Made by a program: the position numbers and the translations under genes. Below, one piece after another: positions 1-3,000 of a stretch of DNA of 64,000 nt. A model generated the notes under the pieces. The model was given only the letters and a program-made list of their open reading frames with translations. It did not search any database and had not been told where the DNA came from. Numbering within the stretch: the stretch's first letter is position 1; each line of letters opens with the position of its first letter. This DNA is from an uncultured bacterium (GTDB taxonomy: Bacteria; Patescibacteriota; JACMRA01), in NCBI GenBank assembly GCA_963704645.1, contig OY969926.1, forward strand, positions 800,001 to 864,000. The letters run 5' to 3'.

Positions 1-3000
1 GTAGGCAGATCTAAGATATTGGCATTCAGCGAAAATTAGATATCTCTTACCTATCATTTCTAAGTATGAACTTGGGGGCTGGGTAGTTAAACTAAAACCA
101 CTAGTTCCAGCAGGACATGTAAAACTGCTGTTCATGGTATTAGTAAATGGATTATTGTATTGGATTCTTACAAAATCATCATTTGGTTGGTAAACACTTC
201 TAGTGTATTGACACTCTGTTAGGAAGGCATACCTCTTCTTCCCCATTTCCATAATACCAGTGGCAGAATTTGAAGCTTGACCATAGAAACCAGCATGAGG
301 AGTTATGTTTAGAACATTGTTATCATCTGCTACTAGAGGTGTATTATCCCATACAGAATTTGGAATAGCTCCACCCATACCAGAATCTGTGTTACAAATA
401 GGGTCTCCTGAAGCAGGAGTTAAACAATTAATTGTTGTATTTGGAATATATGTAAAAGCATTACCATTAGGAATAAGATTGTTAGCGTTGGTATCATTAT
501 CTGTAATAGCTGCATTGCTTACTGCCCCATTAGTTTTATTCTGGTAAGCAAGTCTTACACATATTGTAGAACCTGCTGGTGTATTAGATAATGTTGTTGA
601 GTAGCTTGAAGTAGATGTTGGACATACTGCACTTGCTCCTGTTCCTGAAGTAGGAAGAGCTAATAACTTTTTAACACTAAAGGCTGGGTCACCTGTTACT
701 GTAATTCCACTTCCATTAGTTCCACTGTTTACTGAAGTAAATTCTGGGGTTGTTGCTGTAGATGAAATTGTAGATTGTGTTCCATAGTTTCCCCCCGCGG
801 TGCCTGCTGGGATAATCATTTCATATTGGATGTAGGATTTAGAGCGGGTGGCGTCTAGGGTGTCAACACTGGTAAATTCATTTGGATAACCTACAGCATT
901 TATAGCAACATAACCAGCAACATCAGCTTCACCTGGCGTACAACCTTGTGCCACAGATAAAGCAATAGAGCTTAGATTATCTGCAGAATATAGACTGTCA
1001 TAATTCATAAAATCTAAAGTAGTTGGATTTTGTCTGATACAGTGTAAATAATGTAAGTATCTATTACCTAAAGTAGATTTGGTTTGAATTTGATTTGGGA
1101 AATTAGCATTATTCCAGTTGGTATAACCTGCATTATCTACACTTCCTGGCGCACAATAACTTGGCAATGTCTCAGTTGAATTATTATTTACTCCATAAGT
1201 TTTAAAGTAGTTTACTAAGTCGTTTCCAAGCTGGCGAGTACAAGTTAGACCATGAATATATCTATCACCTAAAGTATCAAAACCATAAGCCCTGTTTGGA
1301 TCATCACTAACATTCCAACTTGTATAATTTGCACCATCTACACTTCCAGGTACACAACTAGGTGTTAATATAGTGTTTAATGTATTTGCAAAACTCACTG
1401 CGGCGTTAAAAGCAATAATATCTGCTCTATTAATGTTAGGTTGTGCTGTTCGAACACAGCTAAATGTATTTAGATACCTCATCTTCCCAATATCCTTAAC
1501 ACCAGCAACCGCATTGTAAGCAGTACCACCACTAGCAACAGTAGTTCCAGCAGCATCATACAAACCTGCACTTGGAGAAACTCCAGAAGCATTAGTTAAT
1601 GTAGAGAATAGAGTATCTTTGTTTGCAGCTGTTCCACTATCACAAACAAGTTCTGTGTTATCTGGAGAAGTAATTGTTGTAGTACTAGGATTTAAACAAT
1701 TTTTAGCAGATCCTGCTACATAGGTAAATGTATTTGGAAGGCTGTCTTTAATGTTAGCACTAGCAGAAGAAATACCTCCTGTGTTTTCATTCCATAATCT
1801 TACTAAAACAGATTGTCCTGGGTTAGCAGATACTGTAGGGCTCCATGTACTTCCTCCGTCTACAGAGTATAGTTTTGTGTAGGTTATGTTTGGAGTGGAT
1901 ACGTTGGTTATTGTTAAAGAGCTAGCTGTTCCTGAAGTTTTAGCTCCACCTGCATTTAGGGTTCCTGTTGTTCCTACTTGTTGTCCGTTGGTAAGTCCAC
2001 TGGTTGGTGCTTGCATGGAGTAAGAGATGTAGCCGTGGCCTCTGGTGGTGTCTGAGAGGTCGGAAGTACCTACAGTGGCATTTACTAGTTCTGCATTTTG
2101 ATCACAGTTTGCGGTGGCAGTAAGAGTATTATCTATAGAAATAATGTCATAATATGTATAGGTATCAATAGTTGAGTTTGTTCTTGTCCTTGCATAGTTA
2201 CATTGATTTTGATGAAGATATCTACCTCCTAAAGAATCTTTTACTGAGCTTGTGATGTTAGTTAAATATTGGGCAATACTTGGAGTAACAGAAGCACAGG
2301 TTACTGTTGTAGCTAGAGTATTGTCGTATTCCCAAACATCTCGATATGAATAATTATCATCGTCAGTTGGATTATAGTAATTGCATTGACCTTGAGTAAT
2401 GTATCTGTTTCCTGCAGTAAAGAGTGTTGCTACTTGGTTAAATGAAGTTTGGGCGGATATATTGCATGTAGTTGTTGTAATTAAAGTTGAGCTAAATCTA
2501 ATATTTCGAGTGCTGTAATTATCTGCGTTTGCAGTATCAGTGTAATTACACTGGTCTACTGCTAGATACCTCTTCTTCCCCAACTCCAAATTAGAAGAAG
2601 TAAGAGTATTATCCACACCATATCCAAAGTATCCAGCACCTGGTGCTACAGAAAGGTTCTGTCCTGTAAATACATTATTGTTTAGTGTTACTGGTGTTGC
2701 GTCTACATAACTATTTGTTACTGCTCCTACTCTTGTGAAGTTGGCTGGCATACTATCTGTAATGTTGGCTGCTGTTACAGATGCTGTAGTTGTATTATTA
2801 TAATAGTTTCTTACATTAACTAATTCTCCTGGAGCAATATCTAAACTTCTATATAATTGTCCGTTCTTTTCATACATTTTTACAAAACATACTCCTGCTG
2901 TATTTGTTCCTCCATTAGATGTATAAGTTGCACAGTCTGAGGGGTTAAAAGCAGTTGCTGTTGTATTTGCTGCTTTGGCTGTATCAGAATCTTGTTTTAA

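Follow-up and report, generated by a model that had tools for sequence, protein, structure and literature searches.

We analyzed a 64,000-nucleotide (nt) stretch of DNA, hereafter the window, from an uncultured bacterium (JACMRA01; assembly GCA_963704645.1, contig OY969926.1, positions 800,001 to 864,000 of the forward strand), with a focus on a 15-nt word, GGGAAGAWGAGGTAT, that stands at the entry of hypervariable inserts in a family of secreted mosaic proteins, and on the codon runs at the exits of these inserts. The genome, called G000 below, consists of one contig of 1,272,640 bp with 33% GC and is 87% complete by marker count. Five open reading frames (ORFs), P1 to P5, hold the 15-mer, and P3 and P4 lie in the window. 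Their positions and the parts of their modules are as follows (coordinates are those of the window unless the genome is named; aa, amino acids; HSP, high-scoring segment pair in BLAST comparisons of paralogs; forms A and B, the two forms of a 12-mer found at exits).

P1: genome 476182-480417, plus strand; ORF holding the 15-mer.
P2: genome 633938-638002, plus strand; ORF holding the 15-mer.
P3: genome 798783-803162, corresponding to window 1-3162, minus strand; 1459 aa; the 5' 1054 codons lie in the window and the gene runs past the window start.
P3 module 1, entry 15-mer: 2566..2580, minus strand; GGG AAG AAG AGG TAT (GKKRY), the final 15 nt of the conserved 5' scaffold block.
P3 module 1, variable core 1: 2065..2565, minus strand; three tandem Cys-containing repeats, with the internal motifs AGNRY and LGGRY in common codons.
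P3 module 1, exit: 2017..2064, minus strand; run of C-ending codons with the form-B 12-mer GACCTCTCAGAC; 14 of 20 codons end in G or C; paralog identity restarts here.
P3 module 2, entry 15-mer: 1474..1488, minus strand; GGG AAG ATG AGG TAT (GKMRY); HSP end at gene nt 1689.
P3 module 2, variable core 2: 865..1473, minus strand; three repeats, with the internal motifs LGDRY and LGNRY in common codons.
P3 module 2, exit: 823..864, minus strand; form-A 12-mer GACACCCTAGAC, then GCC ACC CGC TCT AAA TCC TAC ATC; 11 of 20 codons end in G or C.
P3 module 3, entry 15-mer: 229..243, minus strand; GKKRY.
P3 module 3, variable core 3: 1..228, minus strand; start only, the core being cut by the window edge, with its exit at genome 799668-799679.
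P4: 49968-51653, plus strand; 561 aa; a single module with an unrelated core, then the shared C-terminal domain.
P4, entry 15-mer: 50550..50564, plus strand; HSP ends at gene nt 597.
P4, variable core: 50565..51053, plus strand; matches the core of a same-genus relative at 92% identity over 164 aa, and those of P3 and P5 at 25-30%.
P4, exit: 51054..51101, plus strand; C-ending run with the form-B 12-mer, as in P3 module 1; 14 of 20 codons end in G or C.
P5: genome 1036640-1038385, minus strand; ORF holding the 15-mer.

The five ORFs encode a total of 11 modules, and each protein opens with an N-terminal signal-anchor, continues with one or three modules, and ends in a C-terminal domain common to all. 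P3 is a secreted three-module mosaic in which three scaffolds, predicted from a model of P4 to be immunoglobulin (Ig)-like, are each interrupted by a variable insert. The leader and type-1 scaffold of P4 are ∼98% identical to those of P3 upstream of the entry. The inserts are hypervariable, measure ∼165 to 215 aa, and comprise three tandem repeats, each opening with L-G-x-R-Y and carrying two conserved Cys.

An initial annotation of the window had claimed four copies of the 15-mer, and all were found exactly, at 229-243, 1474-1488, and 2566-2580 on the minus strand and at 50550-50564 on the plus strand, compared to none in 100 dinucleotide shuffles. A variable core follows each copy, as had been stated, except that the third minus-strand core is cut by the window start and its exit thus falls outside the window. 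Counted over the whole genome, as the annotation had proposed, the word occurs nine times in 1,272,640 bp, while a reversed-pattern control occurs 0 times. All nine copies are in frame, read G-K-K/M-R-Y, and lie in the five paralogous secreted-protein ORFs, where 9 of the 11 module entries carry the exact word. The entry of P1 module 1 has AAG in place of AGG, and that of P2 module 3 reads GGT AAA AAA AGA TAT, with its four synonymous sites all in the common A/T-ending form.

The annotation had further opposed the codons of the entries to those of internal repeats of the same motif. This contrast holds, as Gly is encoded by GGG at 10 of 11 entries but at only 1 of 21 internal repeats (8 others have GGA and 12 have GGT), and Arg is encoded by AGG at 9 of 10 entries versus 1 of 21 internal repeats. 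The motifs themselves are not the same, however, since the internal one has the four residues G-x-R-Y and not the five of the entry. Both runs of C-ending codons quoted for the exits are present to the letter, the one of P3 module 1 being TCC GAC CTC TCA GAC ACC ACC AGA GGC CAC GGC TAC ATC. The persistence of the 15-mer between diverged modules was also borne out, since the three sites of P3 agree at 14 or 15 of 15 nt, whereas the flanking 60 nt are 40-55% identical upstream and 30-43% identical downstream in ungapped comparisons.

Breakpoints, the mapping of which had likewise been proposed, were obtained from BLAST comparisons of family genes, with segments at least 88% identical. The segments stop at the 15-mer and restart at the exits: in P3, their ends fall at gene nt 597/601 and 1689, on the final base of the 15-mer or up to 4 nt past it, and they resume at gene nt 1095/1110, 2296/2305, and 3482, which are the exits. 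In motif-anchored alignments, paralogs are near-identical up to the 15-mer (plus 0 to 4 nt), unrelated beyond it, and alike again from the exit. Thus, breakpoints cluster at the junctions, where the codons are rare and G/C-ending; freely varying codons and scattered breakpoints, which the annotation had named as contrary to its proposal, were not what we observed.

The borders are shared by modules with otherwise different scaffolds. Across scaffold types 1 to 3, the 15-mer agrees at 14 or 15 of 15 nt between flanks that are 40-55% identical (ungapped). The exit 12-mers GAYACCCTAGAC (5 copies) and GACCTCYYNGAC (5 copies) are found genome-wide at exits only, and each form is present in more than one scaffold type; the eleventh exit reads GAC CTT CTA GAC. 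The shared 15-mer and exit 12-mers indicate that both cassette borders are common to the three scaffold types. In P1 module 2, the three repeat units are identical at 160 to 164 of 165 nt, yet unit 1 starts with GGG AAG ATG AGG TAT CTA and units 2 and 3 start with GGT AAA AGA TAC TTA, while unit 3 ends with GAC CTT CTA GAC and units 1 and 2 end with GAT ATG TTA GGT. These differences set the edges of the cassette to within one codon.

Although the type-1 scaffolds are 98% identical, their cores are only 25-30% identical, and P2 and P5 have one common core (95%). The best matches between cores of different scaffold types reach 42% for types 2 and 1 (173 aa), 32% for types 3 and 1 (190 aa), and 39% for types 2 and 3 (140 aa), and, by these similarities, cores do cross scaffold types over evolutionary time. 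Altogether, the alignments show the 15-mer and the exit patch to be the exact edges of a putatively exchangeable insert in a paralog family that evolves in concert.

We then compared the border codons with the codon usage of the genome, calculated from ORFs of at least 300 codons (backgrounds are therefore those of ORFs and not of curated genes). Genome-wide usage is 8.6% for GGG, 21.6% for AAG, 15.8% for AGG, 0.8% for CTC, 5.1% for ATC, and 17% for ACC. In the ribosomal-protein operon (3,028 codons), the values are 2.7% for GGG, 4.8% for AGG, 19.1% for AAG, 0.4% for CTC, 8.7% for ACC, 21.3% for GAC, and 11.7% for GGC; ATC, at 9.0%, is somewhat commoner there than in the genome, and TAC and CAC are mildly so. 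Except for TAC, CAC, and ATC, the junction codons are rarer in the ribosomal-protein operon and are thus not preferred codons. The exits differ from the corresponding internal motif in the use of GAC (9 of 11 versus 3 of 18), ACC (5 of 5 versus 0 of 10), and CTA (8 of 8 versus 2 of 16).

The anomaly is sharply localized. The five genes have a mean G+C fraction at third codon positions (GC3) of 0.20 to 0.24. In ten-codon windows, the count of G/C-ending codons is 7 or 8 at 7 of the 11 entries, 5 or 6 at the three entries of type 2, and 3 at that of P2 module 3. Each of the 11 exits has 10 to 14 such codons among its first 20, against 1 to 7 in the preceding 20 and 2 to 7 in the next 20. Ten-codon windows with a GC3 count of at least 7 make up 0.43% of the genome (1,401/325,580); P1 to P5 contain 18 of these spikes, 15 on junctions, one on another block boundary, and two located 22 codons past an exit. 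The ∼600-nt 5' region, which is 98-100% identical among P2 to P5, has the lowest GC3 (0 to 4 per 10-codon bin), and other invariant residues (Cys, Pro, and Gly of scaffold and core) are encoded by common codons.

The examination of synonymous conservation at the junctions, also suggested by the annotation, gave a more limited result. Among codon pairs encoding identical amino acids, synonymous differences amount to 12% at the type-1 motif versus 32-36% nearby, and to 26% at type 2 and 55% at type 3. Conservation is therefore modest at the entry, and there is none in excess at the exits. This modest conservation suggests that the signal is mainly compositional, with a fixed word at the entry only.

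Relatives were examined across 27 genomes of the order. The exact 15-mer is present 9 times in G000, 3 times in the same-genus genome G001, and once in the other-family genome G026 (plus one copy with AGA), and is missing from the others; the remaining matches to a degenerate pattern were about as numerous as those to the control and apparently arise by chance. In 24 aligned modules from G000, G001, and G026, the entry Gly is encoded by GGG in 18 of 24, the first Lys by AAG in 19 of 21, the second Lys by AAG in 13 of 15, and Arg by AGG in 12 of 15, while the other conserved Gly columns of these alignments use GGT, GGA, GGG, and GGC. Several G001 entries retain GGG AAG AAG before differing residues. 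The G001 core that is 92% identical to that of P4 is preceded by GGG AGA TTT AAA TAT, and this combination of an orthologous core with different entry codons indicates that the motif travels with the scaffold and not with the core. A metagenome scan with the P3 protein recovered 2 loci, both close relatives with the same C-rich exits; their entries are GGG AAG TTT AGG TAT, GGG AAG AAG followed by other residues, and one ordinary form.

Other members of the family have ordinary codons at their junctions. This is the case for all three entries and exits of a G001 three-module gene whose scaffold is 39-61% identical to the others, and for the entries and exits of five modules from four distant genomes, which have single-copy homologs. 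A divergent single-module paralog in G000 (1196535-1199690) has the entry GGA CGT TTA AAA, an A/T-rich exit, and no spikes. Over 31 modules, junction GC3 correlates with the presence in the same genome of a paralogous scaffold at least 85% identical, with a Spearman rho of 0.53 for entries and 0.69 for exits, the p-values being overstated because the 31 modules are related. Mean exit GC3 is 11.9 of 20 codons with such a paralog and 7.9 without. Together, these sequence comparisons show a codon anomaly that appears confined to homogenized copies. As a separate observation, an other-family locus (L057, contig C9 of G026) has type-2 and type-3 scaffolds far closer to those of G000 than is its type-1 scaffold (39% over the N-terminal module), which suggests transfer and mosaicism between lineages.

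P1 to P5 form the module-bearing subfamily of a superfamily of twelve genes in the genome, which have the same near-identical N-terminal signal-anchor and a ∼130-aa C-terminal domain ending in GVTSIGGSGL. The middle parts are very different and include Cys-rich repeats, Ig-like modules, and 1,948-aa giants; in 6 of the 12, an SPLTT-type domain lies between the leader and the C-terminal domain. No Pfam family matches the C-terminal domain, which may serve as a signal for sorting or anchoring. The two ∼1,948-aa genes (genome 754169-760012 and 1125298-1131144, ∼370 kb apart) have HSP boundaries against other family members that are identical or offset by 3 nt, and appear from this to be a recent duplicate pair. 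P3 and P4 are in inverted orientation ∼47 kb apart and have in common ∼600 nt of near-identical 5' sequence and the exit block; recombination between them would invert the 47 kb that they enclose. Near the contig end (genome 1264250-1272640), D-T-L-D is encoded as GAT ACA TTA GAT seven times at ∼1,218-nt spacing, a repeat that indicates a predicted gene for a long tandem-repeat protein.

Spikes are also found at other boundaries of the mosaic. For this analysis, paralogs were collapsed by eye into unique block boundaries, and a spike was defined as at least 6 of 12 codons ending in G or C. The start of the SPLTT block has 6 to 9 of 12 such codons, followed by 1 to 2 of 12; the STITVQ block starts with 8 of 12, the block common to the two 1,948-aa genes with 8 of 12, and the type-2 scaffold after module 1 with 6 of 12. 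In the twelve-gene superfamily, 7 of 17 unique boundaries have a spike (6 of 11 starts and 1 of 6 ends), versus 4.5% of all windows in these genes. Outside the superfamily, the repeated genes of the genome have spikes at 5 of 24 unique starts and at 1 of 32 ends, with a background of ∼5%. The spikes at other block starts indicate that the feature does not depend on the Ig-insert junction as a structural element of the protein.

To place the junctions in the protein, P4 residues 62-430 (369 residues) were modeled with AlphaFold (AF2) from a 43-sequence alignment, giving a mean predicted local distance difference test score of 86.4 and a predicted template modeling score of 0.85. An exhaustive VIA search returned 71 chains at Z scores of at least 8, other pilins and MSCRAMM adhesins being among the matches, and aligned the scaffold to the pilin BcpA with a Z score of 13.6 and a root mean square deviation of 2.5 over 136 residues spread over model positions 29..358. 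A Foldseek search of the PDB with the same model had no match at an E value of 0.001 or below. The scaffold is predicted, on the structural match found, to have a Gram-positive pilin/MSCRAMM-like Ig fold. According to the model and the alignment, the insert occupies about model residues 138-303, within the Ig-like domain, and residues G134 and Y138 of the entry and D303, D306, R309, and G312 of the exit are at least 90% conserved among the 43 sequences. These near-invariant residues imply that protein structure accounts for the amino acids at the junctions, and not for the codons. In one relative (L020; contig C11 of G014, ORF from 1410, plus strand), the scaffold has no insert, and an entry ending in NLEAG is joined directly to the exit GYGYIKY; this insert-free scaffold identifies the core as an insertion into a hairpin of the Ig-like domain.

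The family is small, with 92 cluster representatives at an E value of at most 1e-3 among 1.84 billion proteins. Pfam searches assigned P3 and P4 to no family at its cut-off; in relatives they gave one sub-threshold DUF11 match, and other relatives have WxL or SdrD_B elsewhere in the protein. With five genes, 11 inserts, a pilin-like scaffold, and three-repeat Cys inserts, the family is a candidate host- or prey-attachment repertoire.

Known diversification systems were searched for in the genome. A whole-genome search for reverse transcriptase (PF00078) gave 0 matches, with control genomes positive in 3 of 14 cases, and a diversity-generating retroelement is not supported, given this absence. 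The 6- to 8-mers of the motif and the 7-mers of the exit complement are near their maximal-order Markov expectation with weak skew; no sub-word is over-represented or strand-skewed as Chi would be, and a Chi-type hotspot was discarded. RecA is present. A search for a RecBCD or AddAB helicase-nuclease, made with general domain models, found one 759-aa protein with UvrD_C and PD-(D/E)XK domains and two UvrD-helicase hits. The gene for the former (genome 1079356-1081635; L040:3357-5636) has no recognizable N-terminal helicase domain, and no ORF reaching 200 aa is present in the ∼1.4 kb upstream; the gene may be AddA/RecB-like, in truncated or split form. No recombinase lies beside the five loci, the only tyrosine recombinase (PF00589) being at 883.7 kb and the only serine recombinase (PF00239) at 73.7 kb, and a shufflon- or invertase-type system, for which a dedicated recombinase at the locus was expected, was set aside. 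Inversion of the cores is excluded because their opposite strands are not open. Pairing between entry and exit, as RNA or DNA, was rejected for all 11 modules (duplex z of −1.92 to +1.04 versus shuffles). A tblastn search of the genome with the 11 cores gave 48 hits in five genes and 2 in a sixth full-length gene; no silent cassette archive was detected in it, and antigenic variation from a silent archive was discarded because no copies of the cores exist outside full-length genes.

Explanations at the level of expression were considered as well. None of 20 ribosomal-protein genes (operon at genome 152563-162526) has a Shine-Dalgarno (SD)-like sequence in the 25 nt upstream, so the organism appears from these genes to lack SD-led initiation, which removes the reading of GAGGT as an SD-like pause site. 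An internal start was rejected, as no start codon is suitably placed downstream of the motif, and so was the use of optimal or accurate codons at invariant residues, since GGG, AGG, CTC, ACC, GAC, and GGC are rarer in the ribosomal-protein operon than genome-wide. Rfam searches found no known RNA family at the loci, the window holding three tRNAs only, and no promoter- or terminator-like sites above chance were detected at the junctions. Avoidance of poly-A would bear on AAG AAG but leaves GGG, AGG, and the exits unexplained, and P2 module 3 and relatives have the A7 form. Single-copy tRNAs with the anticodons CCC, CUU, and CCU are present. A rare-codon folding cluster conserved among homologs of the same fold is not supported, being missing from the divergent paralog, from P2 module 3, from five of five distant modules, and from one G001 three-module gene.

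We give about even weight to the proposition that the spikes mark the boundaries of exchangeable cassettes at the DNA level, as elements associated with recombination that serve as a homology anchor or insulator. The amino acids at the borders would be fixed by protein structure, and the codons would be fixed or driven at the DNA level. The 15-mer, the exit 12-mer, and the C-ending run would delimit a cassette that is exchanged among paralogs while the scaffolds evolve in concert. During replacement of a core from a paralog, pairing would be possible in the scaffolds only, and repair synthesis would prime at the last homologous base; a GC-rich terminus would be the most stable priming point in a genome of 33% GC, thermally stable where exchange starts and stops. 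The same words in all scaffold types would supply 15 plus 12 nt of type-independent homology. As the edges mismatch the internal L-G-x-R-Y and D-T-L motifs at every synonymous site, they could also insulate the scaffold, keeping the homogenization of repeats within the insert, evident in P1 module 2, from deleting into it. We infer that the patches promote or delimit exchange. A stronger version, in which they are dedicated cis elements for a programmed, RecA-dependent or template-switch exchange of cassettes between any two family scaffolds, written in codon choice alone and operating without silent archive, reverse transcriptase, or dedicated recombinase, seems to us doubtful. The initial annotation had offered a crossover signal, a cleavage signal, or a scar of repeated exchange. 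The first and last fare well as a class, selected signal and passive scar taken together, whereas a cleavage signal or other sequence-specific site does not fit exits that vary by scaffold type, the lack of an adjoining recombinase, and the lack of a Chi signature.

Several observations weigh against boundary elements. Block starts often have spikes, but block ends other than entries seldom do (1 of 6 in the family and 1 of 32 elsewhere), a polarity of starts over ends that a symmetric anchor model fails to predict. Synonymous conservation at the junctions is only modest, with 55% of pairs differing at type 3, and the exits (33-53% differing) are no more conserved than the remaining scaffold. 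The entry of P2 module 3 and several same-genus G001 entries are in ordinary codons, and a G026 three-module gene is high in junction GC3 with no near-identical paralog detected. Within a scaffold type, the 15-mer is unneeded for exchange, as there are hundreds of nt of upstream homology, and between types the core pairs are old (32-42% aa identity), with no recent cross-type swap seen to use the microhomology. Exchange itself was never directly observed and is deduced from mosaicism. The sole public run with the locus (0.24 of sampled words, contigs only) is uninformative on exchange, since its contigs stop at the P4 junctions and their loose ends are known paralogs or adapter. Finally, paralogs and relatives are not independent, and they amount in effect to about three types of entry, three of exit, and a few other boundaries.

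Among the other explanations, we regard as unlikely, though as the one to be taken most seriously, a passive scar without function, left by GC-biased conversion or repair of heteroduplex beside the heterologous core. The codons are non-optimal and G/C-ending, as in the recombining bacterial genes described in PMC4450053, the enrichment at the exits is compositional and not sequence-specific, and the G/C excess decays outward (10 to 14 of 20 codons at the exits, 2 to 7 in the next 20). A scar would also agree with the association of the spikes with homogenized paralogs and with their presence at other mosaic block starts. On the other hand, conversion itself does not raise GC here, since the most homogenized ∼600 nt are the lowest in GC3. 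The spike is, moreover, very short and sharp, and three unrelated scaffold types carry the same 15-mer, including GGG instead of the commoner GGC. Nor does a scar predict the polarity between starts and ends. A translation signal, with clustered rare codons that slow or tune the ribosome where the inserted domain begins and ends, is improbable. Its codons are indeed rare and avoided in ribosomal-protein genes, tRNAs dedicated to them (CCC, CUU, and CCU) are present, and the clusters lie at a domain-insertion boundary. Yet a paralog in the genome with, by sequence, the same architecture, distant homologs, and P2 module 3 all do without the cluster, the N-terminal signal-anchor would have folding take place after export, other invariant residues are in common codons and SD sequences are not used, and spikes of this kind are also seen at block starts with no variable insert next to them.

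It is still less probable that the nucleotides have no meaning of their own, with GK(K/M)RY fixed by the protein and its codons due to descent and ordinary concerted evolution. In favor of this, the residues at the junctions hardly vary in the family, recent paralogs account for many of the nine copies, and the G026 copy may stem from transfer, its type-3 scaffold being, by eye, very like that of G000. Against this, the probability of the exact GKKRY coding under genome codon usage is ∼4e-4, the 15-mer is found in three scaffold types with flanks 40-55% identical (ungapped), other conserved Gly columns vary freely among four codons, and exits encoding different amino acids, as well as other block starts, have the bias too. 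To a site for a sequence-specific nuclease or recombinase that starts replacement, whether a cleavage signal, a shufflon repeat, or a Chi hotspot, we assign the smallest chance of all. Such a site would agree with an exact 15-mer that recurs at 9 of the 11 entries and is present in two further genomes, and with exit 12-mers unique to exits, but the tyrosine and serine recombinases are far away, there is no reverse transcriptase or Chi-like word, the exits come in two forms plus a variant with downstream runs that differ by scaffold type, and inversion is excluded.

If the patches act in cis as boundary elements, codon choice would serve as recombination punctuation, and its simple signature could be used to find exchangeable cassettes in bacteria that have not been cultured. 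Passive patches would instead record biased conversion in a bacterium at an unusually fine scale and be usable to map exchange sites.

In antigenic variation systems such as pilE/pilS, vlsE with its flanking direct repeats, the upstream and downstream homology sequences of Borrelia hermsii, and MgPa, conserved flanks provide the homology for segmental replacement, and systems of the pilE/pilS, vls, and MgPa type possess promoterless silent archives and one expression site. The present cassettes resemble them in that a variable segment lies between conserved sequences where the identity of copies stops and starts; they differ in that core-like sequence is present in six full-length genes only and in that exchange is deduced from mosaicism. 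The scaffold resembles pilins and MSCRAMMs (BcpA, RrgB, AgI/II, and SdrD B-repeats; top-row Z scores of 13.6 to 10 over ∼130 to 140 aligned residues), whereas the three-repeat Cys insert is without counterpart in the matched chains, in which ∼130 to 140 of the 369 model residues are aligned. The var genes of Plasmodium falciparum are reported to undergo in-frame recombination that preserves domain architecture and yields mosaics (PMC4270465). Here as well, paralogous surface-protein genes would recombine with their domain structure kept, although var recombination is eukaryotic and mitotic and the proteins are different. GC-biased gene conversion in bacteria, as presented in PMC4450053, raises GC3 in recombining genes through non-optimal G/C-ending codons at the scale of genes; the effect described here is limited to 10 to 20 border codons and is missing from the most homogenized stretch. 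A study of hypervariable genes in Gracilibacteria (PMC6851277) concerns a different tripeptide repeat and has no bearing here.

The closest known case in function is the VENN-encoding junction of cdiA, where identity drops abruptly after the motif-coding sequence and recombination between motifs is the proposed means of module reloading (PMC3150448). As at VENN and at Rhs core-tip junctions, the last sequence in common is that of a short conserved peptide motif, and the variable part follows. Unlike these, the insert here is internal and bounded on both sides, being followed by scaffold and the shared C-terminal domain, whereas VENN precedes a C-terminal toxin. Pfam found no toxin family here (immunity genes were not specifically searched for), and the donors would be full-length paralogs and not an orphan array. 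The local GC3 spike of rare codons is a further difference, none being reported for VENN in the passages of PMC3150448 that were consulted. The locus is outside all of these systems, with no toxin family, silent archive, reverse transcriptase, or dedicated recombinase. A literature search by titles and abstract beginnings returned nothing on the family or on GC3 spikes at cassette borders, which is a weak negative. Mosaic surface-protein families with conserved junction motifs are already well known; what seems new is that synonymous sites are marked too, by a fine-scale signature at both borders of the cassette and at other block starts.

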